Positions 6,327 to 26,741 of a DNA stretch of 26,750 nucleotides are shown here, piece after piece. The notes beneath the pieces were generated by a model. The model did not search any database, was not told the origin of the DNA, and saw only the letters and a program-made list of their open reading frames with translations. The DNA comes from a virus. Each line of letters begins with the position of its first letter. Position 1 is the first letter of the stretch. The position numbers and the translations under genes are program-made. The stretch lies in UHGV virus genome UHGV-1449992. The stretch is one strand, 5' to 3'.

Positions 6327-6668
6327 ATGATGAAAATTGGACCAATGCGGCATCGGATCACCATCCGAAATTTTATTGCTACGCGAACACCGAGTGGTCA
6401 GCCAACAGAAGAGTGGTCTGACGGCGCCACTATCTGGGCAGAGGTAAAGGGAATCAGTGGACGAGAGAACCTGACAGCAGGAGCAGAAAGGGCAGATGCT
6501 ACAGTTCGTGTCTGGGTTCGATATCGCAAAGATATTTCGGCATCATCGCGACTTCTTGTCCTGAACGGCCCCTACAAAGGAGTGACATTGAATGTCACCG
6601 GGCCTCCGGTGCCAGATAGCAAAGGTACCCGGCTGGAAATTCTCTGCAAACAGGGGACCGAAAAATGA
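6327..6668 (+). CDS. Head closure / head-tail adaptor protein
   Basis: 113-aa ORF MMKIGPMRHRITIRNFIATRTPSGQPTEEWSDGATIWAEVKG... matches the phage head-tail joining family pattern; synteny. Confidence 0.7.
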   Translation: MMKIGPMRHRITIRNFIATRTPSGQPTEEWSDGATIWAEVKGISGRENLTAGAERADATVRVWVRYRKDISASSRLLVLNGPYKGVTLNVTGPPVPDSKGTRLEILCKQGTEK

Positions 6669-7114
6669 TTGATGTGAATCTGGATTTTTCCGGCTTAGAG
6701 GATATCGCCCGAGACCTGCAAATCCTCAGCAAAGCCGAAAACAACAAAGTCCTCCGGGACTCTACTCGGGCCGGGGCTGAAGTCCTCCGGCAGGAAGTGA
6801 TTGATCGGGCTCCTGAGCAAAGCGGAAAACTGAAGAAAAACGTTGTTGTCGTCACCCAGAAAAGCCGTCGCCGTGGGGAAATCGCATCGGGGGTCCATAT
6901 TCGTGGCGTTAACCCGCGAACGGGGAACAGCGACAACACCATGAAGGCCAGCAACAAGCGGAATGCTTTCTACTGGCGCTTCGTGGAGCTGGGAACATCT
7001 ACGGCCCCGGCACATCCTTTTGTTCGCCCCGCTTTTGATACCCGACAGGAAGAGGCCGCAAAGGTAGCGATGGAGAGAATGAACAAGGCGATCGATGAGG
7101 TGCTGGCGAAATGA
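6665..7114 (+). CDS. HK97 gp10-family tail-completion protein
   Basis: 149-aa ORF; 4-nt overlap with the upstream gene; recognised as HK97 gp10-like. Confidence 0.65.
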   Translation: MIDVNLDFSGLEDIARDLQILSKAENNKVLRDSTRAGAEVLRQEVIDRAPEQSGKLKKNVVVVTQKSRRRGEIASGVHIRGVNPRTGNSDNTMKASNKRNAFYWRFVELGTSTAPAHPFVRPAFDTRQEEAAKVAMERMNKAIDEVLAK

Positions 7115-7458
7115 CAGAGGATGATATCTATACCCTGCTGTCGCCGCTGGCAGATGGGCGGGTTTATCCGTATGTGGTGCCGCTTGGCAGCGACGATTTA
7201 CCCGCAGTGGCCGCTCCTTACATTATTTTCTCGATACCGACTGATGTTGCCGGGGATGTTTTCTGTGGGCAGGCCGAATCGACGCTGCACATTCAGGTAG
7301 ACGTGTGGGCAGAAACTAACGATGAGGCCAGGGCGTTGCGGCTTGAGGCCCTTTCCCGGCTGGAAGTGCTTTCACCTACCGAAGTAACCAAAATCCCCGG
7401 CTACGACACTACAACCCACTTGCATCGGGCAACGCTCGAAATAACGGTCATTGCCTGA
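7111..7458 (+). CDS. Tail terminator-like protein (DUF3168-like)
   Basis: 115-aa ORF with start overlapping the previous stop; position immediately before the major tail protein. Confidence 0.55.
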   Translation: MTEDDIYTLLSPLADGRVYPYVVPLGSDDLPAVAAPYIIFSIPTDVAGDVFCGQAESTLHIQVDVWAETNDEARALRLEALSRLEVLSPTEVTKIPGYDTTTHLHRATLEITVIA

Positions 7459-7477
7459 CTGGAACCAATCCAATCTG

Positions 7478-7497
7478 ACCGCCGCTGGCGGTTTTTT
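7478..7497 (+). terminator. Rho-independent terminator between tail terminator gene and major tail gene
   Basis: ACCGCC-GCT-GGCGGT hairpin followed by TTTTTT. Confidence 0.6.
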
Positions 7498-7514
7498 CAT
7501 TTATGGAGGCTGCA

Positions 7515-8225
7515 ATGTCAGCACTATTTGAACGCGCCCAAAAAACGGTAGTAATGATTACATCAGTGCCGGTCACTGCGGAAGAACTGGCATCAGCGAC
7601 CTGGCTCAACCTGAGTTGTACCATTAAACAGGCCAGCTTTACCGCTGGTCAGAAAAACGATATTGACGTGACAACGCTCTGCTCCGAAGAAACGGAGAAT
7701 ATCAACGGACTCCCGGCACCGTCTGAGATGTCTCTCTCCGGTAACTTCTACCGCAACCCGGCGCAGGATGCACTTCGTGCAGCATACGATAACGACGGCG
7801 TTTATGGATTTAAGGTTATTTTCCCGTCCGGAAATGGGTTCCTGATGCGTGCTGAGGTGCGTCAGCACACCTGGGATTCACAGGCAAATAGCGTTGTTGC
7901 TGCGACTTTCTCCCTTCGTCTGAAGGGTAAGCTGAGCAATATCGATGCCTCCGGCATCCTTGCATTTAGTAGCGATCTGCCAGTCACTGAATCAGTTACT
8001 GCCGGGAGTCCACTTTCCTTAAGTGTGGTGGCTACAGGTGGTAAAGCTCCATATACCTACGTATGGAAAAAAGGTTCGTCAACCATCAGCGGGCAGACCA
8101 GCGCAACGTTTAATAAGGCCAGTGCAGTTTCTGGTGATGCCGGTGTTTACTCCTGTGTAGTCACTGACTCTGCCACTCCGGCGAACGTTATCACCTCATC
8201 TGACTGCACCATCACCATCAGTTAA
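7515..8225 (+). CDS. Major tail protein with C-terminal Ig-like (Big_2-type) domain
   Basis: GGAGG ribosome-binding site before ATG 7515 (the six-frame ORF starts at 7503); C-terminal region ...SGDAGVYSCVVTDSATPANVITSSDCTITIS is Ig-like; position before the G/T pair. Confidence 0.8.
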   Translation: MSALFERAQKTVVMITSVPVTAEELASATWLNLSCTIKQASFTAGQKNDIDVTTLCSEETENINGLPAPSEMSLSGNFYRNPAQDALRAAYDNDGVYGFKVIFPSGNGFLMRAEVRQHTWDSQANSVVAATFSLRLKGKLSNIDASGILAFSSDLPVTESVTAGSPLSLSVVATGGKAPYTYVWKKGSSTISGQTSATFNKASAVSGDAGVYSCVVTDSATPANVITSSDCTITIS

Positions 8226-8255
8226 TGGAGCGCCGGGAAACCGGCGATAAACTTA

Positions 8256-8660
8256 ATGTCAAAACAGAATCTTAAAGCGCTGGCGCTGGCCCCGATGGCG
8301 GGTTTTCGTAAAAAAGAAGTCACCGTTCCGGAATGGGAAAACGCCAAAGTTATCATTCGTGAACCATCGGCTGAGGCCTGGATTCGCTGGCAGGGGATTG
8401 CCAGCCCGGAACAACCAAAACTACCGGAAGGGCAGGAAGCGCCAGAGGTGCCAGAACTGACCCCTTCAGAACGCGCGTTCCGCACGATGCGGGCAGATGT
8501 CACACTCTTCATTGATATTCTGCTGGATACCGACCTGCAGTACGTTTTCACCGTCGATGATACCGAACAGGTTGAAGCAATTTATGGCCCTGTCCATTCC
8601 CGGTTGCTGAAACAGGCGCTTGATCTCATTCGTGATGCGGATGATGCCAAAGCAAAGTAA
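8256..8660 (+). CDS. Tail assembly chaperone (lambda gpG analogue)
   Basis: 134-aa acidic ORF immediately before the tape-measure region, followed by an overlapping -1 frame ORF. Confidence 0.7.
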   Translation: MSKQNLKALALAPMAGFRKKEVTVPEWENAKVIIREPSAEAWIRWQGIASPEQPKLPEGQEAPEVPELTPSERAFRTMRADVTLFIDILLDTDLQYVFTVDDTEQVEAIYGPVHSRLLKQALDLIRDADDAKAK

Positions 8661-8968
8661 AAATGCCTGGCATGCAGTTCCTGATGGCGCTGGCGCTCCG
8701 GATGGGACGCACGCTGGGCGAACTGCGACAAACCATGACGGTTGGCGAATTCAGAATGTGGGCTGAATACGACCGTATCAGCCCGATCGGTGATATCCGT
8801 GGCGATATTCTCAATGCCCAGCTGGTTTCAGCGATGTACGGGGCGCAGGGCGGTAAAGTCACCATCGAAGATGCTCAACTCAAGTGGAGCACAGAAGAGG
8901 ATGAGGTAATCGACAGTGGCGATCCATTTGCCGGATTAGAGGCCGCTTTGCTCGCAGCATCGGAATAA
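8645..8968 (+). CDS. Tail assembly protein T-like extension, likely expressed as a G-T fusion by -1 programmed frameshift
   Basis: The -1 frame relative to G is open from 8645 to TAA at 8966-8968 and overlaps the last 5 codons of G; the A-rich sequence GCC AAA GCA AAG TAA AAA sits at the end of G. Translation ...MTVGEFRMWAEYDRISPIGDIRGDILNAQL... is gpT-like. Confidence 0.6.
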   Translation, partial: CQSKVKMPGMQFLMALALRMGRTLGELRQTMTVGEFRMWAEYDRISPIGDIRGDILNAQLVSAMYGAQGGKVTIEDAQLKWSTEEDEVIDSGDPFAGLEAALLAASE

Positions 8969-8983
8969 AATTGAATCGTCTCC

Positions 8984-9010
8984 AGCCTCGCTTCAACGCG
9001 GGGCTTTTTT
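8984..9010 (+). terminator. Rho-independent terminator after the G-T genes
   Basis: AGCCTCGC-TTCAA-CGCGGGGCT stem (one G-U pair) followed by TTTTTT. Confidence 0.55.
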
Positions 9011-9154
9011 ATACCCAAATTTCACCGCGCATCTCACGCGCACTTCACACAGAACCTTTCAGGATGAGCCTTGAGGATACCGGCTGGCTGTCGGTGCCTT
9101 TCTGTGGGCCGGATTCCTGTGAGACAAGGTTCATCACTAAAAGGTAATACCGAT

Positions 9155-9910
9155 ATGTCTAACATTGTCCCCATGAATTATGATGACCATTCATTCCCTT
9201 TTGCTTCTGATTGCTGGTTTAATGCCACAGTTGCTGCAAAGCATCACAGGAAGAGAGTGAAGAACTGGACAATTCTGGAGTCAACAAGGGATTACGTTGT
9301 CGAGTTGGCGCAAGAGCTTGATATTGAACCATTCAATTCTAAAGGGCAGATTTCTACCCTTTTAATTAGGATTGAGAAAGGCCGTTATGGCGGCACATGG
9401 ATGCACCCAGAGTTGGCCGTTGAGTTCGCCCGTTGGTTGTCAGTCAAATTTGCCCGCGCCTGCGACCGCCACATTAAAAATTTGCTGCTGAGTAAAAATT
9501 TTCAGCTCACTGAAGATCAGATTGTCGGCCTCATGGTCTGCCAGCAACCCAGTTCCTGGGAAAAAAGGTTTAAAGACCCGTTCTACCAGGCACTGTCGAA
9601 AATGTCCGGCATTCCTTATTTTGGTCATGTCGGCGGATGTCCGGCGTTGTTCGGTCAGATCACCGCTCGCTGGGTCTACGGTGTAGCACTTCCTGATTAT
9701 GTCTATCAGGCAGCTAAACAGGCAGCCGGCAACAGCAAGGAGAAGATTCATCAGCATCTTAAGCCGGATGCGCTGGAGAAGGTCGAGCAGCAACTGATCG
9801 CCGTCACAAACATTGCCAGTTGCAGCATTGACCAGAAGGACTTTGAGGCCCGTTGCATGGCTGCCTTTCCTGTCAAAGGGCAGATGAAGCTGCTGTATGC
9901 GGCGGCATAA
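9155..9910 (+). CDS. KilA-N domain protein (N-terminal KilA-N DNA-binding domain; C-terminal region possibly P63C-like); accessory gene
   Basis: ATG 9155 preceded by AAGGTAA. N-terminus ...FNATVAAKHHRKRVKNWTILESTRDYVVELAQ...RIEKGRYGGTWMHPELAVEFARWLS has the hallmarks of KilA-N; not a structural gene. Confidence 0.65.
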   Translation: MSNIVPMNYDDHSFPFASDCWFNATVAAKHHRKRVKNWTILESTRDYVVELAQELDIEPFNSKGQISTLLIRIEKGRYGGTWMHPELAVEFARWLSVKFARACDRHIKNLLLSKNFQLTEDQIVGLMVCQQPSSWEKRFKDPFYQALSKMSGIPYFGHVGGCPALFGQITARWVYGVALPDYVYQAAKQAAGNSKEKIHQHLKPDALEKVEQQLIAVTNIASCSIDQKDFEARCMAAFPVKGQMKLLYAAA

Positions 9911-9912
9911 CC

Positions 9913-10170
9913 ATGAATAACCGAATCGTTGAGTGCGCCTCCAGAGCGGGGCGCGACTTCTCTGAGTTCATGAAAGGCGAGAAGAACATGATGGAGGCGC
10001 TGCGGTCTGCGGAGGAATTCACCGAGCAGTTACGCATTCACGGCTGCGTTAATCACCATTTCGTCAATTTCATGATGATGAAAGCGATAATGAAGGTGTT
10101 CGACGATATGCAACGCGAGGAGCAGCGTGAAGAGCGCCGAAGAAAACGAGCAGAAAAGAAAGGCAAATAG
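9913..10170 (+). CDS. Small hypothetical protein (85 aa) with strongly basic/acidic C-terminal tail; accessory gene
   Basis: ATG 2 nt after the KilA-N stop codon (translationally coupled geometry); C-terminus DDMQREEQREERRRKRAEKKGK. Confidence 0.45.
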   Translation: MNNRIVECASRAGRDFSEFMKGEKNMMEALRSAEEFTEQLRIHGCVNHHFVNFMMMKAIMKVFDDMQREEQREERRRKRAEKKGK

Positions 10171-10186
10171 CCCACCCGTGTGGGCT
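10169..10186 (+). terminator. Stem-loop after the small accessory gene (weak terminator or RNA-stability hairpin)
   Basis: AGCCCAC-CCGT-GTGGGCT perfect 7-bp stem overlapping the stop codon; poor U-tract. Confidence 0.35.
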
Positions 10187-10202
10187 TTCATCGCTAACTA
10201 CA

Positions 10203-10253
10203 GCGATCCTTTTGCAGCCTTAGAGGCCGCTTTGTTTGCAGCATCAGCTTGAA
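10203..10253 (+). pseudogene. Remnant 3' end of a second T-like tail assembly gene (recombination scar)
   Basis: About 48 nt with 6 mismatches relative to 8919-8968; translates SDPFAALEAALFAASA* versus the authentic T C-terminus GDPFAGLEAALLAASE*. Confidence 0.6.
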
Positions 10254-10328
10254 TTAAACAACGATAGCTGAAGTCTTTCTTAACCAATGGTAGGATTTGA
10301 GTACTTTTCTACCTTTTGGGATAAAAAA

Positions 10329-10850
10329 ATGAAAAAAATATTGGGTGTTTTATCTTTAGTCGTTTTTGCTATAGCATTTATTATTGCGTTAAGGCAACCA
10401 ATATCAATCGTATTTCTTATTGCTGTTTTGGCGATTCCTTTAAAATATATAGATAAAATTGGCGGAGAGATTGCTTCTCTTTTGATAATATTCGGTTCTA
10501 TCTTTGTTTTGTTTTTTGTTAACTCAATGGTTCCTTTATGGGGGGAGAGGTATGAGAATCATGAGGAGTTAGTGAGAATTAGCGAGAGCGATAGGCAGAA
10601 AAGATACAACAATATGAATGTTATATCAGCAAGCAACTCTGGTGTTAAGTCTGCATTAAAAGACCCTGAATCCGCAACCTTCAAAAATCAGAGCGTTGGT
10701 CGTGAAGGGTATGTGTGCGGTCAGGTAAATGCTAAAAACAGCTTTGGTGCATACGCCGGGTTTAAAAGGTATGTAAGTAAAAATGGCATGACAATTATTG
10801 ATGATGGCGGATCTGAATTTTCGAAACTATGGGGCGAGATTTGTAAATGA
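10329..10850 (+). CDS. AT-rich accessory membrane protein (about 3 predicted TM helices plus a soluble roughly 100-aa C-terminal domain), function unknown
   Basis: ORF with visibly lower GC than its neighbours; hydrophobic N-terminus KILGVLSLVVFAIAFIIAL...IVFLIAVLAIPL...LLIIFGSIFVLFFV. Alternative in-frame start at 10287. Confidence 0.6.
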   Translation: MKKILGVLSLVVFAIAFIIALRQPISIVFLIAVLAIPLKYIDKIGGEIASLLIIFGSIFVLFFVNSMVPLWGERYENHEELVRISESDRQKRYNNMNVISASNSGVKSALKDPESATFKNQSVGREGYVCGQVNAKNSFGAYAGFKRYVSKNGMTIIDDGGSEFSKLWGEICK

Positions 10851-10870
10851 TACATTCTTGCTAATTAAAG

Positions 10871-10893
10871 AAAACCGCTTAGGCGGTTTTTTT
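10871..10893 (+). terminator. Rho-independent terminator after the membrane-protein gene
   Basis: AAAACCGC-TTAG-GCGGTTTT followed by a T run, directly upstream of the tape-measure start. Confidence 0.6.
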
Positions 10894-10911
10894 ATATCTG
10901 CGAGGATATAA

Positions 10912-13900
10912 ATGGCAACTTTACGCGAGCTTATCATTAAGGTTTCAGCAAACTCTCAATCATTCCAGACTGAGATCGCCCGCGCATCACGCATGGGGCA
11001 AGACTATTATAAAACTATGCAGAATGGTGGGCGTCAGGCTGCTGCTGCTGCGAAGGAAAGCCAAAAAGCTCTTTCCGAGTTAACGGATGGATTTGCTTCA
11101 GCGGGTCGAGCTGCCACAATTGCAGCTGCAGCATTTGCAACAGGAAAACTGGTTCAGATTGCAGACCAATGGAACTCAGTAAATGCACGGCTTAAACAAG
11201 CCTCAGTGTCTACGAATGATTTTACTTTATCTCAAACCCGATTAATGGCGATCAGCCAGAGTACGGGCACTGCTTTTACTGATAACGCTAATTTATTTTC
11301 ACGCGCGGCAGCATCAATGCGTGAATTTGGCTACAGCTCAGATGAAGTACTCAAAATCACCGAAGCGGTATCAACAGGACTAAAACTATCTGGTGCAAGT
11401 ACAGAAGAGGCCGGCTCTGTTATTACCCAGTTTAGCCAAGCGCTTGCTCAAGGTGTTTTGCGTGGCGAAGAGTTTAACGTGGTTAACGAAGCCGGGGATC
11501 GTGTCATCCGTGCCCTGGCTGCTGGTATGGGGGTTGCCCGAAAAGATCTTAAAGCGATGGCTGACCAGGGGCAACTCACGATTGATAAAGTCGTACCAGC
11601 ATTAATCAGCCAGTTAGGTGTGTTACAGGGGGAGTTTTCCTCGTTACCGCCGACAGTTTCCGGTTCAATGCAAAAAGTCACTAACTCCTTTATGGCATGG
11701 GTTGGAGGGGTAAACCAGGCTACTGGTGCAACAGACGCACTTTCTGGCGGTCTTGATGGGCTGGCAGGTACGCTGGATTCTCTTACATCTTCTGCTGTCA
11801 GCGGGGCCCTCAGTGACGTAGCAGATAATATGTCACTAATTACCACCGCCGCAGGTGGCCTAGTTGGGATCGGATTAGCCCGGTATCTTGGCGGGATTGT
11901 TACCAGCGCAAGCAGCGCTACTGGCGCACTTATTTCAGCCGCAAAATCTGAAGTAGCCCTTGCAGTAGCCCAGGAAAAAGCCGCGCAATCTTCCGTTGCT
12001 GCTTCCCGCGCCGCAGTTTATCGTGCCCAGCAAGCCCTTCAGAGTGCTAAAAGTGCAGATGTTCAGGCCGCACAACAGGAGAGGGTTGCAGCCGCAGAAG
12101 CAAAGGTTACTGCTGCACAAGGTCGATTGACTACAGCCCTCGCCACCGGGACAGCTACAGAAAAAGTACGAGCACGAACAGCTTTGGAGCGGGCTCAGGC
12201 CGGACTTGTGGCAGCAAAAAATGCCGATGCACAGGCTATTGCAGAAAGAAAACTTGCCACAGCTCAAGCGGCGCTTAGCCGTAATATTTCAGGTAGGGTT
12301 TCTGCTCAAAATAACCTTAACAGCGTTACCTCTGTCGGCACCCGGTTGATGAGCGGGGCTCTTGGGCTGGTCGGTGGTATACCCGGGTTAGTAATGCTGG
12401 GTGCTGGCGCATGGTACGCTATGTATCAAAGCCAGGAACAAGCAAGAAAATCAGCTCAGGAGTATGCCAGCCAAATAGATCAAATCAGAGAAAAAACCTC
12501 CTCAATGACCCTACCTGAGGTCGATAGTAATCGCAGATTATCGGTTGAGGCGATGCAGGAACAAAAGCGCCTAATCGAAGAACAAGAACGGAGCGTTAAA
12601 AGTCTTAACGGACAAATAAAGGATTTAAATGAAAGTAGAAACAAGCCAGGCATTACTCAAGAAAATGATTTGAATATTACAAAGGCTATCGCAATTCTTA
12701 CCGAACAGATTGTCGTAGAAGAAGACAAGCTTCGTCAGATGCGAGAAAAGGCAAGCGATATACTAAAGGCGCAGGAGGAACAAGAAAGAAGAAGAAACGA
12801 TCTTATTAAAGATCGCGCCTGGCGTCAAAATGCTGAATACCAGAACCTTGTAATGATGACTGGTAAGTATTCCGAAGTTAACCGTTTACTTGGATTGGGA
12901 AACCAGCTTTTAATGGAACGGCAGGGCTTGGTTAACGTGCCAATGCGAATGCCTCAGGCTGATTTAACATCTCAACAAACAGCCGCACTGGAAAAAAGCC
13001 GCCGGGATTTAGATCTCTCTACACGTAAAGGCGAAGACAAGGAGCGCACCAGACTTGGCTATGTTGCAGATGATTTGGGGCTGAAGGATGAACCTCAATT
13101 CCAGACCGGAAGACAAGAGATAATTAATAATGGCATTAAAGAATGGAAAAATAACGAGGCAAATAAACCCACCCGGAAAGCGCCAAAAAGCGAAGAATTA
13201 AAAGCCGCCGAGAAGACAGAAGATGTTTACAAGCGTCTTATTAAACAGCAGGAAGAACAAATCGCTTTGGGAAGCCAGAATACCGAACTGGCTAAAGTCA
13301 AATACCAGGTGACGCAGGGTGAATTAGCTTCTCTTGAACAAGCCAAAAAAGAAATAATTCTGCAAAATGCAGCGCTTATCGATCAGAAAAACATTGCTGA
13401 ACAGTTAAAAACGTTCCGTGAGGGGCTGGCTGACAGCAACGCTGCTGCTCGTGACCGGGGAAATATTGATTTTCTTGGCGCCGGGATGGGGGATAAGGCC
13501 CGCGACCGCATGAAGGAAATGGCAGATATTCGTACTGATTTTCTCAAACAGCAGCGCGACCTGCAGCGGGATTTCAGCAAAGGTCAGATTTCTGAGGACC
13601 TGTACAAACAGCAAACGGAAGCGCTTCAGGCGGCGCTTACTGAACGGCTCCAGATTCAGGAGGACTACTACAAGAAAACCGATGAACAGCAGTCAGACTG
13701 GCGGGCGGGGATCAGCGATTCACTGATGAACTACGCCGATCAGGCTGCTGACCTCAGTTCAATGGCTGCCACCGCAACCAGCGAAATTCTGGATGCCACC
13801 ACTAACTCTATCTCCAACAACCTGACCAGCGTCCTGACTGGTGCGACTTCGTTCAAAGATGGGATGTCGAACATTTTCAGCTCTCTGGGTGAAACGGTGA

Positions 13901-14493
13901 TTAAGACGTTGATACAGATGGCAACACAGGCGCTAATCACCAAAGCGATTATGGCGTCGTTCGGCGGTGGGGCTGGTGGAATGTTCGGGAGTCTTCTTGG
14001 CGGAGGTGGGGGAGGTGGCAGCACCGGGACGGCCATTCAGAGCGCTGGTGCTAATCTTTCGTTTAATGCTCTGGGTGGTGTCTACGATTCACCTTCACTT
14101 TCCGCATACAGCGGCGGTGTATACAGCACTCCGCAGTACTTTGCGTTTGCGAAAGGCGCGGGCGTGTTCGGTGAAGCGGGACCCGAAGCGATTATGCCCC
14201 TTACCCGTGGCGCTGACGGTTCGCTGGGGGTTCGTGCGGTTGGACGTGAGTCACCGGCAGTCCAGGATGCTGCAAGGCAGCAGCAGGAAAGACAACTTCT
14301 TTCAACAGGTGATATCAACGTCAATTACCACCTCACAGGTAAACCTGATGATGTGATGATGCAGACAATGGATGCCCACGGTCGCCGCCTGGCTAAACAG
14401 ATTAAATCTGAACTGACGAGCGACGTTAACAATCCTCAAAATGCTTTCGGTAGAGCACTTTACTCCAACCTTCAGCCCAAAAAACCACGATAA
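10912..14493 (+). CDS. Tail tape measure protein
   Basis: 1193-aa ORF, Ala/Gln-rich coiled-coil-like body, Gly-rich stretch near the C-terminus; position after G/T. Confidence 0.9.
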   Translation: MATLRELIIKVSANSQSFQTEIARASRMGQDYYKTMQNGGRQAAAAAKESQKALSELTDGFASAGRAATIAAAAFATGKLVQIADQWNSVNARLKQASVSTNDFTLSQTRLMAISQSTGTAFTDNANLFSRAAASMREFGYSSDEVLKITEAVSTGLKLSGASTEEAGSVITQFSQALAQGVLRGEEFNVVNEAGDRVIRALAAGMGVARKDLKAMADQGQLTIDKVVPALISQLGVLQGEFSSLPPTVSGSMQKVTNSFMAWVGGVNQATGATDALSGGLDGLAGTLDSLTSSAVSGALSDVADNMSLITTAAGGLVGIGLARYLGGIVTSASSATGALISAAKSEVALAVAQEKAAQSSVAASRAAVYRAQQALQSAKSADVQAAQQERVAAAEAKVTAAQGRLTTALATGTATEKVRARTALERAQAGLVAAKNADAQAIAERKLATAQAALSRNISGRVSAQNNLNSVTSVGTRLMSGALGLVGGIPGLVMLGAGAWYAMYQSQEQARKSAQEYASQIDQIREKTSSMTLPEVDSNRRLSVEAMQEQKRLIEEQERSVKSLNGQIKDLNESRNKPGITQENDLNITKAIAILTEQIVVEEDKLRQMREKASDILKAQEEQERRRNDLIKDRAWRQNAEYQNLVMMTGKYSEVNRLLGLGNQLLMERQGLVNVPMRMPQADLTSQQTAALEKSRRDLDLSTRKGEDKERTRLGYVADDLGLKDEPQFQTGRQEIINNGIKEWKNNEANKPTRKAPKSEELKAAEKTEDVYKRLIKQQEEQIALGSQNTELAKVKYQVTQGELASLEQAKKEIILQNAALIDQKNIAEQLKTFREGLADSNAAARDRGNIDFLGAGMGDKARDRMKEMADIRTDFLKQQRDLQRDFSKGQISEDLYKQQTEALQAALTERLQIQEDYYKKTDEQQSDWRAGISDSLMNYADQAADLSSMAATATSEILDATTNSISNNLTSVLTGATSFKDGMSNIFSSLGETVIKTLIQMATQALITKAIMASFGGGAGGMFGSLLGGGGGGGSTGTAIQSAGANLSFNALGGVYDSPSLSAYSGGVYSTPQYFAFAKGAGVFGEAGPEAIMPLTRGADGSLGVRAVGRESPAVQDAARQQQERQLLSTGDINVNYHLTGKPDDVMMQTMDAHGRRLAKQIKSELTSDVNNPQNAFGRALYSNLQPKKPR

Positions 14494-18972: not shown

Positions 18973-19300
18973 CGCCTTTTTTGGAGCAAAAAACATGGCC
19001 TTTAACCCGGAGCTGGGGAGCACGTCTCCCGCTGTTCTGCTCGATAACGCCGAGCGCCTGGATAAGCTAGTGAATGGTGATGTGCTGACCGAACCGGACC
19101 GCGCGGGCGTTGATCTGGATACTTGGCGCGGAATGATGGCGAAAAACGATGAGGTTAGGAAAAACCTGATCCCATTGAGTAAGCAATACATGACGATTGA
19201 GGCGGCGCAGGCTGATATCGCGAATATTCCAGAGGGGTCAACGACCTATGTGAGAAGCCCAGGCAATATAGCCCTGGCATTTGAAGTTATTAATAATGGG
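18947..19300. repeat. Left arm of an inverted repeat (leader plus 5' roughly 300 nt of the tail fibre gene)
   Basis: Leader 18947-18997 is identical to the reverse complement of 26692-26741 apart from a 1-nt A-run indel; the coding part is about 80% identical at nucleotide level. Confidence 0.8.
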
Positions 19301-22300
19301 GGAGTGCTTGAACCTACATGGCGAGCAATGCCGTCGCAGGCTTATGTAGATTTTACTTTATCCAGCGCGGGACAACTGCCTTCAGCGATAATGACCCGTG
19401 ACGAAATATACGCTTCGGTCGAGAGATACGGGCAGTGGACTCGTACTGATACCAACGGATGGGCTGTCGGAGTCAAATCCAGTGGTAAGCCAGTGAACAG
19501 CCTGGCGCTGTGGCTGAATAACCTTTCTGAAATCAGCACGCTTTCTGTTTCTGTTTATCACCGCACTGTTGACGGTTTTTCAGTTCTGCCGGGCGCCGCT
19601 ACAGACAAGCTAATGAGTAGCCAGTCGGTCGCATCTGAAGACGTAGCGATAACTCAAGCACTGGCGCAAGGGTATCAGTTAGTCAGGCTCACCGTGCCTG
19701 ATGTACTGCTTAAATCTGATGAAATCATTCTGTTCGTCGTTAAAGCGCTCGATGCTTCAGGCGCTCCAGTTTATCTGGGGTGTGGCCGGGCGCCGGTTGA
19801 ATCAGGACAGGTTTCTGATTTAAATAACTCTCTGGGCGGTTTCTGGCTTGATGTCGCCCAGACAGCATGGAAGACAGTTACCTCATCTGACAGTCTGTAC
19901 CGGCTGGCTTACAGGGTCGGCTATTTCAGTACGGCAGCCAATAATTACTCGGCCTTTGCTCTCTCCCGTAGTGTTGTGCAGGAGGTTGTGGGAAACAGCT
20001 CAAATTATGCGACGGGCACGACCTTGTCAGGGCGATTTTATGGCTGGGCACTTGGTTTCAAATCTGTGCCAGGGGCGTTCGATATGATCACCCTTTACCA
20101 TAACAACCTCGATGCGGTGGCATATATTGATTACAGGATTGTTCTGCGCGAATTGACTTACGGTACTGCTGCGCAGCCTCTCGGCACTATCGCAACGGAC
20201 AGAGAGGTATTCTCATCACGTAAACTTCCACCGCCGCAGGGGAATAGCCTTTTCACCGCTGTTGATTACCCAGTTCCTGAACTTGTGGTACCCGCAGGAT
20301 ATTTTGCTGCAATAGAACTGCACCCGCTGCAGTGGAACGGCGATACGGCGGACATGGGATGCCAGGCTCATAACTATGCAGGGGAGACATTGCCAACCGA
20401 TATTGGCAGAGGCTATTTTGTCAATCGTAATGATAACGTATGGCGCGTAATATCAGATTCTACTAATGGACTCGCGTATGCACTTGCTCTTGCCGAGTGG
20501 GGAGGCATCCCTCAGGGGGTTGAAAAAGCACAGGGTGAAATCTCGACGCTGAATTCACTAGTTGTTCAGACCAGCCAGACCGTTGCGGAAATGAATACCT
20601 ATGAGATGGAAACGTCTTTTGAAAAAGCATCAGATAATCTTCAGTGGTCCTATGCATCTATGGTTGAATCTGCTCGATTCTGGCGGTGGGCGGTGCCAGT
20701 TTCTGCAGAAGCATCTGAGTTAAAATCCATCGCCATGTGGCTTGATGGCGTATCTCTTAATACCATTCTTCAATGCGACGTTTATTTCCGGCTGACATCA
20801 AACCAGACCAATACATCGGGACCGGGAGCTGTATCTGGTGACATTCTGGCCTTGACAGCAAATGTCACGCCGTTGCCAGCTAATACAGCGATGACAAAAA
20901 TCACGCTCCCGGTAGACCGTCTGACGGTACCGGCTGGTTATTTCCCGATCGTGGCTGTGACCGCATATTACAGTGCTGGCGTGAGCGGAAATCTGGGGTC
21001 AGGCTCGAAATCCTACAGCGCTGGTGATAATCCGGCTACGTACCTCAAGGGCTGGTACCAACGTTTTGACCGCACCGGTTGGCAGACTATCCCTGCGGGG
21101 ACATATGCCGCTGTCGCTGTCAGTGCTGTACTTGTCACCGCTCAGGATCTGCAGGAGAAAATTGCGTCTCTTGAATCCGGTTCTGATGTAACCGCCGATT
21201 ATTCCGGGGACAGCATCGATCGCTATGCACCGCAGGTAGCGGCTACTGGATTAACAGCCGTCATTACTGGTAACGCCATTCTCCGCGGGTCAGCAAAACC
21301 TATATCGGGGACGCTGACATTTGATGCGACAACGGTTGGTAGCACGACTGTCGCCAGCAGTCTTGTGCAGGCATCAGCGGCAGCACAATGGCCATCTAAC
21401 CCTAATGCCTGGTTGGGCGAGAAGCGCATCAGCGCAGTGACCGTAACCAATACTGCAACGAGCACACCGTTAACACCAGGGATGCACTATAACGTTGACA
21501 GCTACGGCGGGAAGCTGAGAGGACTGACGGCAACCACCTACGCTGTCAGTGTGACGTTTACGTACACGCGCGAGCGTTACGACCTGATTCAGATTGACCC
21601 GACGTCACTCGCACTGTCAGTGAAAAAAGGGATGGAACGGGCATTTGACGTTCAGGAATATCGTCCCGCGCCTGATGCCGGAAAAGTCGCGCTTTATTAC
21701 GTTCTGGTCGCCGGAAGCACGCTCGAATTCGATCCGGTTCACCGTTATGTAGACCTTGGCGGCGAGATGCTGGATGGCAAGGATTATGGCTTGCTGCGGC
21801 AGCACAACCGGCGCTTCCTTCAGAAAACGCTGGCGCGCCTGAATCGTGGTCAGGCGATTACGCTGGTAGGGCACGGAGACTCAATCACCGCAGTGTCTAA
21901 TATCAACAGCCCGGCGACGACACCGAACGGAACAACGCGTGACCTGCAGAGGTTTTTGCAGGGAGGCTATGGCAGCGACACACTGACGAACTTGTATCCC
22001 GCGCAGGACTGGGGGGATGGCGGTGGTGCTGTTCATGTCAGTATCGGCTGGAACCGGGTGCTGAAGAAGCATTTTGAAGATGTTTACGGGTCAGAAGTGA
22101 CGTATTACAACTTCGGAATGTCGGGGACGACCTCGGCATCTGGTGCGGGTTCAGACCGTCTCGGCGCGATTACCGCGCTTTCACCGCACCTGACGGTTGT
22201 CGGGTTCGGTATGAACGATAACGCGGGAAGTACGCTGTACGGAAACCTGATGACCATCATCAGCACGCTGAAAGCTGCGGGTTCTGAGGTTGTTCTGATG

Positions 22301-22555
22301 CCGGTGCCGCGCACGTCAAATACCGAAGACGGACGCTATACCCAGGACCAGACCCGGTATATGAACCGGCAGATATACAGAGCCGCGATTGACGGAGGCG
22401 CAGCATACGCACCGGCGGACTGGCTGACGGACGACAACAGCAAGGGAGGCATGGGCATTGCCACCACCTCTCTTACTGGCTCAGACCTGCGCAACCATCC
22501 GGGCGGATACGAAATGAGCATCTACGGAAAGGCGCTGGTTAATGTGTTCTGCTGA
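18995..22555 (+). CDS. Tail fibre/spike protein A: conserved N-terminal anchor domain, central body, C-terminal SGNH/GDSL-type hydrolase (esterase) domain
   Basis: 1186-aa ORF with GGAG ribosome-binding site. C-terminal motifs LVGHGDSITAV (GDS block), VVGFGMNDNAG (GxND block) and SDLRNHPGG (Asp/His block) are in SGNH order. Confidence 0.8.
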   Translation: MAFNPELGSTSPAVLLDNAERLDKLVNGDVLTEPDRAGVDLDTWRGMMAKNDEVRKNLIPLSKQYMTIEAAQADIANIPEGSTTYVRSPGNIALAFEVINNGGVLEPTWRAMPSQAYVDFTLSSAGQLPSAIMTRDEIYASVERYGQWTRTDTNGWAVGVKSSGKPVNSLALWLNNLSEISTLSVSVYHRTVDGFSVLPGAATDKLMSSQSVASEDVAITQALAQGYQLVRLTVPDVLLKSDEIILFVVKALDASGAPVYLGCGRAPVESGQVSDLNNSLGGFWLDVAQTAWKTVTSSDSLYRLAYRVGYFSTAANNYSAFALSRSVVQEVVGNSSNYATGTTLSGRFYGWALGFKSVPGAFDMITLYHNNLDAVAYIDYRIVLRELTYGTAAQPLGTIATDREVFSSRKLPPPQGNSLFTAVDYPVPELVVPAGYFAAIELHPLQWNGDTADMGCQAHNYAGETLPTDIGRGYFVNRNDNVWRVISDSTNGLAYALALAEWGGIPQGVEKAQGEISTLNSLVVQTSQTVAEMNTYEMETSFEKASDNLQWSYASMVESARFWRWAVPVSAEASELKSIAMWLDGVSLNTILQCDVYFRLTSNQTNTSGPGAVSGDILALTANVTPLPANTAMTKITLPVDRLTVPAGYFPIVAVTAYYSAGVSGNLGSGSKSYSAGDNPATYLKGWYQRFDRTGWQTIPAGTYAAVAVSAVLVTAQDLQEKIASLESGSDVTADYSGDSIDRYAPQVAATGLTAVITGNAILRGSAKPISGTLTFDATTVGSTTVASSLVQASAAAQWPSNPNAWLGEKRISAVTVTNTATSTPLTPGMHYNVDSYGGKLRGLTATTYAVSVTFTYTRERYDLIQIDPTSLALSVKKGMERAFDVQEYRPAPDAGKVALYYVLVAGSTLEFDPVHRYVDLGGEMLDGKDYGLLRQHNRRFLQKTLARLNRGQAITLVGHGDSITAVSNINSPATTPNGTTRDLQRFLQGGYGSDTLTNLYPAQDWGDGGGAVHVSIGWNRVLKKHFEDVYGSEVTYYNFGMSGTTSASGAGSDRLGAITALSPHLTVVGFGMNDNAGSTLYGNLMTIISTLKAAGSEVVLMPVPRTSNTEDGRYTQDQTRYMNRQIYRAAIDGGAAYAPADWLTDDNSKGGMGIATTSLTGSDLRNHPGGYEMSIYGKALVNVFC

Positions 22556-22614: not shown

Positions 22615-25600
22615 TTAAAGACACGCTTTCCAGCAGTACAGACCTCCGTGATCGTATGTCGATGCGCCGTTACCCAGACCTTCATACAAATCGGAACGGT
22701 CAAAGGAAAGCATAAAAAGCTCCGTTTCATCTCCATTAGTGAACGGGACCAGCGTGCACCATGGCCCCGTTGTGTTCGGAGCCAGATACACATCCTGCAC
22801 AAATTCCCCCAGGAAGGTCAGACCTGCCTCATACTTGCGCAGATGCAGTCGGTTGGCCGTTCCTCCGCTTGTCAGGTAGGTTGTCTCGCCGAAATGAACG
22901 AACTGATTCCCGGTATCGCGCACGCCAGCAGGGACTTCTGCCGTCGTATATTCCGGCACAATACCGTCGTACAGCGTCGGGCTCCGGAAGGTTTTGCATC
23001 CACTGGAGATGGTGTTTCCCGTCATCACCCACTGGCTGCTCGACGTTTCATAGTAGAAATCAATATCCTCCACGTAGCTTGCCCCGATCCCGAAAAAACT
23101 GCCGTTGGCGTTCTTCAGTTGCACGGAGTTTCTGACGATGATCACGCCGCCCTGCAGCAAGTCCTGTTTCGTCTCAAAGTACAGTTTTGGTCGATTGTTA
23201 TCGGCCAGCCCTTTCCCCTGATAGTCCATACCGCAAGAGATGCCCTTCCAGCTCTGACTGTTCCGGTCATACACCGCCTTGATACTGTCATCACCCAGCA
23301 CGACATCCTCATCGGTTCCGTCAGTCCGAACCTGGAAAATCGCGCCCACCATCTGCACTTCACCGCTGTTGAAGTTGATACGGACTATCTGAGTGTACAG
23401 GTCGGAGATAGTGGTCCCTGTTCCCTCAACGAGAAAATAAAGCCAGTTACCGCGCTGAATAAACGTCCCGTCTTCATAGGTCAGAAAGCGAATGGAGACG
23501 GAATTCGCCCCGCTGGCAATTCGGTTTGAAAAACCACTAAAGACAGCAATATCACTGGCCGAATATGCATCCGTTTGTGCGAACACGTACGTTTTCCACG
23601 TGTCCAGGTATTCCAGCCTGCGGGCATCAAAGATGGCATAGTGCTCATAGCGGCCAATCCATTTCCACGTCCCGTCAGCGTTCACTTTTTTTAGCAGCAG
23701 TGACACCCCGGTATTCTGCACCTGAAGCACTGCGCCGGTCATATCCGAACCGGTGAACGTGGTGGTATCAAGCAGACTCCCTGCGGCGTAGATTTCACAG
23801 ATAACCTGGCTGTTCGAGACGCGGACCGAAACACTGTTCTGCTGGTCAACATCCGCGAACATTATCCCCATCGTGGCATTGCCTGCCAGCCTGTCGATCG
23901 CGATCTCACTGGTTGCAAAGGGCATATAGCGATCCGCGAACATCACCACCCGGCCATTTGCTGTCGGGTTACGGAAAGAGACCTTTCCTGCTGACCAGGA
24001 ATAAGCAAACACATTCCCGGCGGTGATATCGTAAATATTGCTCTGCAGATTCCAGGGATTGTTTTCCAGGTCCATAAAAGAGAGCATGAACGAGTCAGCG
24101 GCATTGTAAAAATCGCGACGCGCCCACTGCTTAGTGAAAGTGTATTCCAGAGGGTTGCTGAAACTGTCGAAGTCAGGCGTCTTTTCAGGCAGCCCGGATA
24201 AATCGACATGGTAAGGCGCGTTAAAAACTTTTGCTTTTACCTGACTGCTCCGCGAGGACTGCTCAATCATGGCGGATACGTCATTGAATCTGGCGACCTG
24301 ATTGGAATAAATCTTCCTGACGGCGTATACGGGATCGGTTGTTTTTCTGACGCGCACCGCAACGTAACCGTCCTGTGTGGCCACTCCGCGATACGTTGCC
24401 GTCACATATCCGCCGCCCGATTTGAAGGTGAAGAGGTCCGACACCCACCCCTTGTCCGCGTCACATTGCATGATATAGGCGATAAGTTCTCCGACGGTGG
24501 CGGAGCCGTACTGCCCGTACATCTCGACAGAGTCGCCTTTTCGCACCGGGATGTAATACATCCGCCAGACACTGTAAGCAGAGCCGGAGACGATATTACC
24601 GCCGCTGTACATTACTGAGTTATCAGCAATGACTGATGCCACGCTGGTATAATCGATGGTTTTTACCGGCCCTCTGAGGTCTGATGCAAAAGCTTTATCC
24701 TGAGACGTCCGTGTTATGGTTGCCGCGGGTGTGGTGACGCGTACGCGCACGTAAACGAAACCATCCTGGGTTGCCACGCCGGCCATTACGCCGTTACTGG
24801 TGACACCCGGTGATGTGTAAGTGGCAAGATTAGCCACCACCGCCATTGCCGCATCCAGCTGAATGATATAAGCAATAACTTCGCCTGCCGTGCCGGAGCC
24901 GATTTGCCCGAAATAGCGCACGATATCCCCCGCGCGAACAGGAACATACGCTGCTTTCCAGTTCTCACCTGCGGTGTCAGAAATCATTCCGCCTGAGTAT
25001 ATAACCCGCCCCGTGATAGTGTATGTATCCGGTGCACTGGTCACGTCCAGGGTTGTTCTGTTAGCCGCAGCAATATCGGCCGGGTTCATTACAGCGTATA
25101 CGTTGCCGGGCAGGGAAAACAGTTGAGTGGTCTTTGTAATGGTTGCTGCCGGATCAGTCACACGCACCCGGACATAAACAAAACCATCCTGTGTGGCGAC
25201 ACCAGTCATAACACCAGCGCTGGACGAACCGGGCGAAGTATAGGTGGCGAGTGGCGCCACAAATTTCATCGCACTGTCGAGCTGGATGATATAAGCCAGT
25301 ACCTGGCCCGAAGTGCCGGAGCCGATTTGGCCGTGATACTGAATAACCTCTCCTGCTTTCACGGGCAGATAAGCTGCTTTCCAGCTATCTCCTGCGTTGT
25401 CCACCACCGAACCATCCGCTGACATGACACGCCCGATAATATATGTGGTGGTTGAAGCATTAGTGACATCCGTAGTCACGCGGTTGGCCGCATTCACAGA
25501 CGTTACAGTTTTGACGCCGAATACATCTGCGCCGGGTGTGAACCGCTCTCTGCTCTGATAAATCGCCGCTTCCGGCGTGGTCACCCGCACACGGAAGTAA

Positions 25601-26694: not shown

Positions 26695-26741
26695 GTTTTT
26701 GCTCCAAAAAAGGCGTTCGCGCAAACGAGGGTTTGAGCGAA
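26390..26741. repeat. Right arm of the inverted repeat (leader plus 5' end of fibre gene B)
   Basis: Reverse complement matches 18947-19300 (identical leader, about 80% identical coding part). Confidence 0.8.
26716..26741. other. 26-bp hix/gix-like near-palindrome (right copy, inverted relative to 18947-18972)
   Basis: TTCGCGCAAACG-AG-GGTTTGAGCGAA is the exact reverse complement of the left copy. Confidence 0.45.

Follow-up and report, generated by a model that had tools for sequence, protein, structure and literature searches.

The interval between T and the tape measure gene

In the virus genome UHGV-1449992 (26,750 nucleotides (nt), all of which was analysed and is referred to here as the window) about 1.9 kb of DNA (positions 8,969–10,911) separates the tail assembly chaperone gene T from the tape measure protein gene. 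Three genes lie in this interval on the + strand, and they encode a two-domain KilA-N/P63C DNA-binding protein of 251 residues (9155–9910), a protein of 85 residues (9913–10170) and a membrane protein of 173 residues whose gene is AT-rich (10329–10850). Intrinsic terminators are located close to the two ends of the interval, at 8984–9011 and 10871–10897. An initial annotation of this DNA had listed the three genes and both terminators, and our analysis recovered all of them, displaced by a few bases at most from the positions first assigned. It had also taken the genes to be accessory cargo rather than conserved structural genes, which agrees with the finding that related phages lack one, two or all three of them. 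The same annotation read the interval as a single cassette bracketed by its own terminators. The terminators are real; the single cassette is not, as the interval consists of two units of different origin, acquired independently, with a remnant of T between them.

The evidence for two units comes from a 43-nt direct repeat, which a repeat search and a three-way alignment with the Klebsiella phage vB_VIPKPNMC05 located at 8919–8961 and 10203–10245 on the + strand, with 86% identity between the copies. The first copy is the 3′ end of the intact T gene, while the second lies in what is left of an ancestral T 3′ end, a remnant (10203–10252) that still includes the old TGA stop codon at 10250–10252 and marks the junction of the units. 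The initial annotation had listed neither this repeat nor the structured leader described below. The gene order in vB_VIPKPNMC05 is T, a 173-residue protein that is 90% identical to the window membrane protein, and the tape measure gene. In BLAST comparisons, positions 8200–8961 and 10203–11200 of the window are together collinear with one contiguous stretch of this phage, and the 43-nt repeat matches twice. Moreover, the sequence of the remnant corresponds to the genuine end of T in vB_VIPKPNMC05, where it is followed by the same membrane gene. This collinearity and the repeat therefore show that a block of 1284 bp was inserted within the last ~50 nt of T. The T remnant is also present 3′ of the KilA-N block in seven sister contigs (L010, L012, L014–L017 and L074), at two different distances.

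Unit A (~8962–10202) is the later insertion and comprises, in order, a terminator, a short hairpin termed P0, a structured leader, the KilA-N/P63C gene, the 85-residue gene and a final hairpin. Unit B (10253–10897) is older and consists of the AT-rich membrane gene with its own terminator. Positions 8982–10188 of the window recur as a block, with 85% identity, in Klebsiella phage ST11-VIM1phi8.1, which has a different major tail protein and chaperone. Similarity to contig L002 starts at 8982, and similarity to both L002 and L003 ends at 10188. Such recurrence in phages with unrelated tail and chaperone genes shows that unit A is portable. An ancestor resembling vB_VIPKPNMC05 (T, membrane gene, tape measure gene) thus gained unit A through recombination within the final ~50 nt of T, and to the right of the insertion a decayed duplicate of the T end remained.

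The terminators of the interval differ in their placement. The terminator at 8984–9011 (+ strand), formed by a hairpin at 8984–9005 with an 8-bp stem containing six GC pairs and followed by a run of six T, is the first element of unit A and accompanies the leader into unrelated phages. It thus sits upstream of the KilA-N unit and moves with it, an order opposite to that of a moron, in which promoter, gene and terminator follow one another, and it does not bracket the interval in the manner first proposed. At the 3′ end of unit A there is only a weak hairpin (10169–10186, + strand; 7-bp stem, poor U-tract), whereas unit B has a strong terminator of its own (10871–10897, + strand), made up of a hairpin at 10871–10890 and a T-run, that lies 14 nt before the tape measure start codon. 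Within 7000–12000 we counted 15 terminator-like sites compared to 5.7 ± 3.1 in shuffled sequences.

The interval corresponds to the HK97 gene 15 site

The position of these genes had been called unusual, a view that the comparison with HK97 overturns. The term moron was coined for HK97 gene 15, which is located between the tail assembly chaperone and tape measure genes and encodes an inner-membrane protein, gp15, that is expressed from the prophage and blocks DNA entry (PMC3594210; HK97 annotation). As the tape measure protein of the window has the HK97 tape measure domain and gene 15 defines this site, the location is the expected one, and there is nothing out of the ordinary in finding a moron here. 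The window membrane gene resembles gene 15 (Juhala et al. 2000; Cumby et al. 2012) in lying at the same junction, after G/G-T and before an HK97-type tape measure gene, in encoding a small (predicted) inner-membrane protein, in ending with a terminator of its own right in front of the tape measure start, and in being absent from close relatives. It differs in that the encoded protein is unrelated in sequence to gp15 and has three transmembrane helices and a folded domain of ~70 residues, while gp15 has one helix and a short tail.

The KilA-N gene is likewise a regular occupant of this interval. In 80 viral contigs, it lies directly after the chaperone (or tail tube) gene and before the tape measure gene in at least eight unrelated upstream-sequence clusters, that is, in at least eight unrelated tail-module lineages, one of which is of the sheath/tube myovirus type with the KilA-N gene after the tail tube gene. 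It follows Rz in only three contigs and, in addition, in HK97, HK022 and the mEp phages. Between the KilA-N gene and the tape measure gene the contigs contain 0–5 kb of variable cargo.

Relatives fill the slot in different ways. The membrane gene is present alone, without unit A, in vB_VIPKPNMC05 and ST899-OXA48phi17.2, which share the same G/T/tape-measure module, while both units are replaced in ST13-OXA48phi12.2 and phage 1 LV-2017. The initial annotation had supposed that T normally leads directly into the tape measure gene; this arrangement was not found in any relative examined, each having some small gene in between. The alternative cargo includes homologues of gp15 itself in sister phages of the window: a 61-residue protein in L014 (7438–7623) is 75% identical to HK97 gp15, and an unannotated open reading frame (ORF) in Klebsiella phage 1 LV-2017 (L005; 5037–5270) encodes a gp15/YebO-like protein of 77 residues. 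In L012 and L013 the slot holds a 120-residue lipoprotein or a 149-residue secreted protein, in which the LKDPxSAxF...CGxVNAKN domain of the window membrane protein is again present; L010 and ST13-OXA48phi12.2 carry a 94-residue Cys-rich secreted protein, and L074 a secreted protein of 263 residues. Each of the alternative cargo genes, HK97 gene 15 included, ends in its own, different hairpin and T-run just before the tape measure start. By manual reading, a signal peptide, lipobox or transmembrane start is found in ~24 of ~40 distinct siphovirus-type proteins encoded immediately 5′ of a tape-measure-sized ORF.

Many of the secreted and lipoprotein cargo genes are preceded by a second portable 5′ element, in which a terminator hairpin is combined with a sigma-70-like promoter (TTGTCG, 17 nt, TACGAT) and with an unvarying segment that spans the Shine-Dalgarno sequence and start (ACTGATGGGGATAGGGATATG). 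It occurs in L003 (~6590–6680), in L022, L023 and L026 (~7640–7730), in L027 (~2390–2480) and in L051, L053, L070, L077 and L122. The ACTGATGGGGATAGGGATATG promoter module of these related islands was not found in the window. In ST11-type Klebsiella prophages the chaperone-to-tape-measure interval reaches 3–5 kb (L002, 5951–8134; L043, L045, L048, L052, L061 and L068) and its cargo, which includes Arc-like ribbon-helix-helix, Bro-N and Rha/‘repressor’ genes, resembles the P22 immI region. L052 has in addition a 322-residue ORF that, by appearance, is a candidate insertion-sequence transposase.

A conserved structured leader precedes the KilA-N gene

Where the promoter of a moron would lie, unit A has its terminator followed by a structured leader. 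The P0 hairpin (9027–9041, + strand; 9027–9030 paired with 9038–9041) has the nearly invariant form GCGC-N7-GCGC, with 94.8% of cells paired in 49 sequences. The conserved leader that follows (9048–9145, + strand) was delineated from covariation pair counts and a single-sequence fold and contains helices P1 (9048–9054 with 9100–9106), P2 (9079–9084 with 9090–9095) and P3 (9055–9077 with 9115–9144). In P3 a CCUUU segment pairs with the Shine-Dalgarno sequence AAAGG (9140–9144), ten bases before the KilA-N start codon. We collected copies of the leader by a pattern scan and nhmmer, and support for the structure is drawn from nhmmer and the pair counts. In 49 non-redundant copies, the four-helix structure has 92.7% of cells paired compared to 87.3% in shuffled controls and 40–47% when the partners were slid against each other. 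Changes on both sides were observed in 15 leader pairs, and one pair of P1 occurs as AU, CG, UA and GC. In the divergent copy in HK97, P3 is maintained through many compensatory changes. The frequency of G-U pairs places the leader RNA on the + strand, which is also the gene strand.

The single-sequence fold of the leader has an energy of −51.1 kcal/mol (z = −2.84). P3 together with an inner helix, P4, accounts for −43 kcal/mol and is more stable than P1 with P2 (−20 kcal/mol), although P4 shows less covariation than P2. P1 crosses P3, which implies either a pseudoknot or alternative states.

The window contains a single copy of this leader (nhmmer E value of 4e-38). Rfam 15 gave no match at the gathering score in the whole window and nothing relevant at E ≤ 1 in 8900–11000; an rsmX match at 10737–10893 (E value of 0.31) is merely the terminator hairpin. 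The c4, IsrK, sar and put RNAs were considered as possible identities of the leader, and c4 and IsrK, which are represented in Rfam, had no match in the window. No LexA box was seen in the leader by eye.

The leader is found in front of genes that are otherwise unrelated. Positions 9027–9154 are ~92% identical to the sequence before the ant gene of Shiga-toxin phages, which lies between R and Rz there, and 82–85% identical to the sequence before a Rha-type gene in P22-like Salmonella phages, while the coding sequences behind these shared leaders are unrelated. In all, it precedes at least 11 protein clusters, namely KilA-N/P63C, short KilA-N, Rha+ORF11CD3, P22_AR_N+ORF11CD3, two HNH_3, AntA, ANT, Rha, Bro-N and one unassigned cluster. 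At ≥90% identity it is present in 606 of 5,426 complete Escherichia coli genomes, with a median of three and a maximum of eight copies, and no RNA is annotated there. Further copies occur in phages of E. coli, Salmonella and Klebsiella, for example in L006 (1795–1953), L007 (2996–3142) and L008 (3020–3174).

A simple consensus scan of the + strand from 7000 to 12000 identified no two-hexamer sigma-70 promoter, and no promoter inside the leader that would give transcripts without the 5′ arm of P3 was seen by eye. A candidate extended −10 promoter for the membrane gene, TGGTAGGAT (10287–10295, + strand), was read from the sequence and may serve unit B.

The KilA-N/P63C protein and its small partner

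The first protein of unit A (9155–9910, + strand) matches the KilA-N model PF04383 (E value of 1.5e-17) and the P63C model PF10546 (E value of 2.6e-11), both above their gathering scores, has an APSES/KilA-N fold and is a homologue of HK97 gp73. Profile searches, which the initial annotation had proposed for all three proteins, thus identified domains in this one; the 85-residue protein and the membrane protein had no Pfam, NCBIfam or PADLOC family match. No P22_AR_N, AntA or ANT domain was found by Pfam in the KilA-N protein, and its structure model contains no nuclease fold. Searches of PDB sequences with the KilA-N and 85-residue proteins returned chance-level matches only. The KilA-N/P63C family is large and extends through Enterobacterales and beyond, with members annotated simply as KilA-N or DNA-binding proteins. 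In an alignment of 46 sequences with identities down to 35%, 26 columns are invariant, which over this range of hosts indicates clear purifying selection on the protein.

The ATG of the 85-residue gene (9913–10170, + strand) lies 2 nt past the KilA-N stop codon. Its product belongs to phrog_875 (E value of 1.6e-51), a family of unknown function, and has 54 conserved N-terminal residues, including Cys8, Cys45, His48 and His49, followed by a variable charged tail. The gene is found immediately 3′ of the KilA-N gene in 57 of 80 related loci. Unit A has a GC content of 49–50% and so, unlike unit B, lacks the deviating composition of a moron.

HK97 carries a corresponding pair (HK97p60/p61), gp73 and the small ORF next to it, which are 48% and 78% identical to the window proteins, the latter value applying to 54 residues; HK022 and the mEp phages have homologues of this pair. 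The gene order, the close coupling and a homologous leader with compensatory changes are shared. The HK97 pair is located after the lysis cassette (after Rz) and before the HNH/terminase genes, whereas in the window it occupies the gene 15 site between the chaperone and tape measure genes. The KilA-N/P63C pair of the gp73 family is among the most consistently placed passengers of tail operons, and this consistency argues for a real function in the lytic cycle. We infer that the KilA-N unit is not a classical lysogenic-conversion gene. A literature search that included papers on prophage small RNAs of enterohaemorrhagic E. coli found no description of the gene pair or of the leader, and an earlier description is possible.

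The membrane protein of unit B

The membrane gene (10329–10850, + strand) has a GC content of 36.4% compared to 51.9% for the window, a composition typical of a moron. Its longest ORF starts at 10287, while gene callers choose 10329. The product matches phrog_16400 and phrog_2320, both of unknown function. The AlphaFold model (predicted local distance difference test, pLDDT, of 86.2) consists of three transmembrane helices, a long helix and a small α/β domain, in line with the initial description of an AT-rich, multi-pass protein. The C-terminal domain contains the motif LKDPESAxF...CGxVNAKNSFG and two conserved cysteines, one invariant in the alignment and the other nearly so. As homologues of this domain bear signal peptides or lipoboxes, and as the protein has a Lys-rich N-terminus and three helices, the domain should face the periplasm. 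The model thus points to an inner-membrane protein that probably exposes a small disulfide-type domain to the periplasm. The protein resembles gp15 in its position between the chaperone and tape measure genes and in its predicted membrane anchoring, and unit B, being AT-rich, variably present and equipped with its own terminator, has most features by which morons are defined.

A composite accessory island

Taken together, we favour, at somewhat better than even confidence, a reading of the interval as a composite accessory island that occupies the gene 15 site of HK97 and in which unit A supplies a DNA-binding regulator of the late operon and unit B an exclusion moron. Transcription of unit A would occur by read-through of the antiterminated late operon, since the unit opens with a terminator and no promoter was found. 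The pairing of leader helix P3 with the Shine-Dalgarno sequence would then throttle or switch translation of the KilA-N gene. The KilA-N/P63C product may accordingly be envisaged as a late-expressed, dose-limited DNA-binding regulator or antirepressor-like factor in lytic growth, with the small Cys/His protein of 85 residues as its putative partner. It is placed in an antirepressor guild because it has no catalytic domain and because the leader is common to P22-type, AntA, ANT, Bro-N, Rha and HNH genes.

P22 provides a precedent. Its ant gene and the sar RNA are an example of a late read-through gene with RNA-limited translation, as in the leader model proposed here. The immI region (mnt-arc-ant with the sar antisense RNA) is a case of an antirepressor gene in the late region whose translation from read-through transcripts is restrained by RNA. 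The likeness extends to the genes involved, as the window leader type precedes P22_AR_N, AntA and ANT genes and the ST11-type islands carry Arc-like and Bro-N/Rha genes at the junction. In contrast to immI, control in the window would be exerted by a cis structure rather than by an antisense RNA acting in trans, and the window has no arc, mnt or operator.

For unit B, superinfection exclusion is the best hypothesis for the membrane protein, as suggested by its interchangeability with a proven exclusion gene, its envelope location, its foreign composition and its private terminator. The initial annotation had named superinfection exclusion among the possible roles of the cargo, which appears a reasonable guess for this protein given the gp15 homologues that sister phages hold in its slot. 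Unit B is thus probably a moron in the gp15 slot that encodes an exclusion protein. Like gp15, this protein would be made in the lysogen and would act at the inner membrane or in the periplasm to keep the genomes of superinfecting siphophages out. The lipoprotein or membrane exclusion proteins Ltp (from Streptococcus phage TP-J34), Cor, Llp and SieA are likewise prophage-encoded and membrane-anchored, with a small folded extracytoplasmic domain such as is predicted in the window protein. Ltp targets the tape measure protein of the incoming phage. Unlike these proteins, to which it has no sequence or detectable fold similarity, the window protein is anchored by three helices rather than by lipid. 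The membrane- or lipid-anchored DPxSAxF...CGxVNAKN domain, which alternates with gp15 in one slot, may define a new superinfection-exclusion family. If so, it could account for patterns of phage resistance among Klebsiella lysogens and would be relevant to phage therapy.

Several results weigh against this assignment of functions. For unit A, the putative membership of an antirepressor guild is based on shared regulation and domain class only. P1 and P3, which can be drawn together only as a pseudoknot, may coexist or alternate, and part of the sequence invariance of the leader stems from the search pattern with which the copies were collected. The absence of a promoter is the result of a simple consensus scan, and a weak or non-sigma-70 promoter could still lie in 9006–9154. 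For unit B, the membrane protein had no BLASTP match to HK97 gp15 at E ≤ 0.01, so that homology to gp15/YebO was not found. Foldseek searches against PDB gave a best E value of 0.56, those against viral models returned solely uncharacterised proteins and one annotated lipoprotein, and PADLOC returned none. Finally, the C-terminal domain of the membrane protein also occurs in non-phage bacterial lipoproteins.

A broader interpretation of the leader is possible, if somewhat short of an even chance. The ~120-nt element may be an undescribed and widespread cis-regulatory RNA of enterobacterial temperate phages, acting as a portable ‘late-operon gate’ that sets the timing and amount of antirepressor-class and HNH proteins, possibly through a factor-driven switch between P1/P2 and P3. 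The chaperone-to-tape-measure junction of Klebsiella-type prophages would then be an organised island, with the gated regulator first and the envelope/exclusion gene last. If regulatory, the leader, which is found in ~11% of complete E. coli genomes and is often multicopy in Shiga-toxin strains, would bear on cross-talk between prophages and on induction.

Among the alternatives, we consider it unlikely, without dismissing it, that the membrane protein is a lysogenic-conversion envelope protein (conferring serum resistance, adhesion or stress tolerance; compare lambda Bor and Lom) or that it assists the tail or the injection process of its own phage. Many ordinary lipoproteins and secreted proteins of bacteria contain its C-terminal domain, morons are functionally diverse (PMC3594210), and a position directly beside the tape measure gene would fit a function on the phage side. 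Against a tail role, the protein is missing from phages with the same tape measure module, where gp15-like or unrelated secreted proteins are found instead, and hence it is not needed for tail assembly. That a proven exclusion gene can stand in its place speaks for an equivalent role.

An alternative that we regard as improbable is that the KilA-N/P63C and 85-residue proteins form a prophage-expressed abortive infection or defence system of the BstA type, which would sense or bind replicating foreign phage DNA. A local PADLOC match of the KilA-N protein to the candidate system PDC-S22 (E value of 2.3e-7) and the mobility and variable presence of the cassette with the KilA-N gene would be consistent with it. 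This match, however, is confined to a 30-residue stretch of the KilA-N domain, and PDC-S22 was the only defence model matched. BstA (Owen et al. 2021) is also a prophage protein, in which a KilA-N(-like) DNA-binding domain at the N-terminus is joined to a second domain without an assigned function. The C-terminal domain of the window protein, however, is P63C and not of the BstA type. In addition, BstA adjoins the cI repressor in the immunity region and has its own promoter and terminator, while the KilA-N gene is located in the late tail operon behind a terminator and a Shine-Dalgarno-sequestering leader, with no promoter found.

We attach a similarly low probability to the possibility that unit A is a selfish, recombination-prone passenger comparable to free-standing homing-endonuclease genes and of little benefit to phage or host, with a leader that simply holds a potentially toxic DNA-binding protein to harmless amounts in read-through from strong late transcripts. 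The leader does precede HNH_3 homing-endonuclease-like genes, and unit A is found at several late-operon junctions in many unrelated phages. In T4, hairpins reportedly sequester the ribosome-binding site of free-standing endonuclease genes in read-through transcripts, which would parallel the logic of the leader. Nevertheless, the lack of a nuclease fold in the KilA-N/P63C model means that the unit would not spread itself by homing, and the purifying selection on this protein and the retention of the partner gene in most loci also speak against a purely selfish element.

It is very improbable that the leader functions as a DNA site (an operator, a recombination site or a promoter for a phage-specific factor) or as a short ORF rather than as RNA, since, despite a palindromic GCGC-N7-GCGC that could bind a dimeric protein and a 58-residue ORF with a TTG start (8971–9147) that spans the leader and is annotated in one Salmonella phage as ORF41, compensatory changes preserve pairing in three leader helices, the many G-U pairs would turn into A-C mismatches if the opposite strand or duplex DNA were the active form, and frequent one-nucleotide indels in the leader alignment leave no reading frame conserved, which led us to reject the ORF as coding.

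Flanking tail genes

The window covers the genes for head and tail morphogenesis in a Klebsiella-type prophage that is an HK97-like siphovirus. It encodes a terminase, portal, S78 protease, HK97-type capsid protein, connectors, an Ig-tagged major tail protein, G, T, the tape measure protein, a DUF1833 protein and a J-like tip protein. The same arrangement is present, in identical form, on the 5.85-Mb chromosome GCA_030294485.1, and the phage records nearest to the window are from Klebsiella pneumoniae.

The interval is preceded by the chaperone genes G (8256–8660, + strand; PF06222, E value of 5e-44) and T (8663–8968, + strand; PF06223, E value of 6e-18) and is bounded on the right by the tape measure protein gene (10912–14493, + strand; PF06120, PF20155 and PF09718). 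The profile phrog_14766, a fused tail protein of 224 residues, covers G with its positions 3–122 and T with 127–223. In the T reading frame the open stretch does not begin until 8645, just 15 nt ahead of the stop codon of G. The region 8652–8660 contains no classical X XXY YYZ heptamer, and given how late the T frame opens, the −1 slip site for a G-T frameshift is likely to be A-AAG beside the TAA stop codon of G.

A strong terminator-like hairpin at 7477–7500 (GACCGCCGCTGGCGGTT followed by a T-run) lies immediately 5′ of the major tail protein gene. Its location within the late operon implies reliance on antitermination. The HK97 annotation places a terminator just 3′ of the major tail gene instead. 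In the middle of the tape measure gene (12250–13250) the GC content falls to 42–45% with a strong excess of A over T, which suggests a mosaic or separately acquired segment.

Further downstream, positions 18995–22555 encode a tail fibre-like protein of 1186 residues with a C-terminal GDSL/SGNH esterase domain, suggestive of a tail fibre that modifies its receptor by deacetylation. An ORF of 1369 residues, for which no Pfam family scored above threshold, occupies 22615–26724 on the minus strand, opposite in orientation to the tail genes, and the negative GC skew over this stretch supports minus-strand coding.

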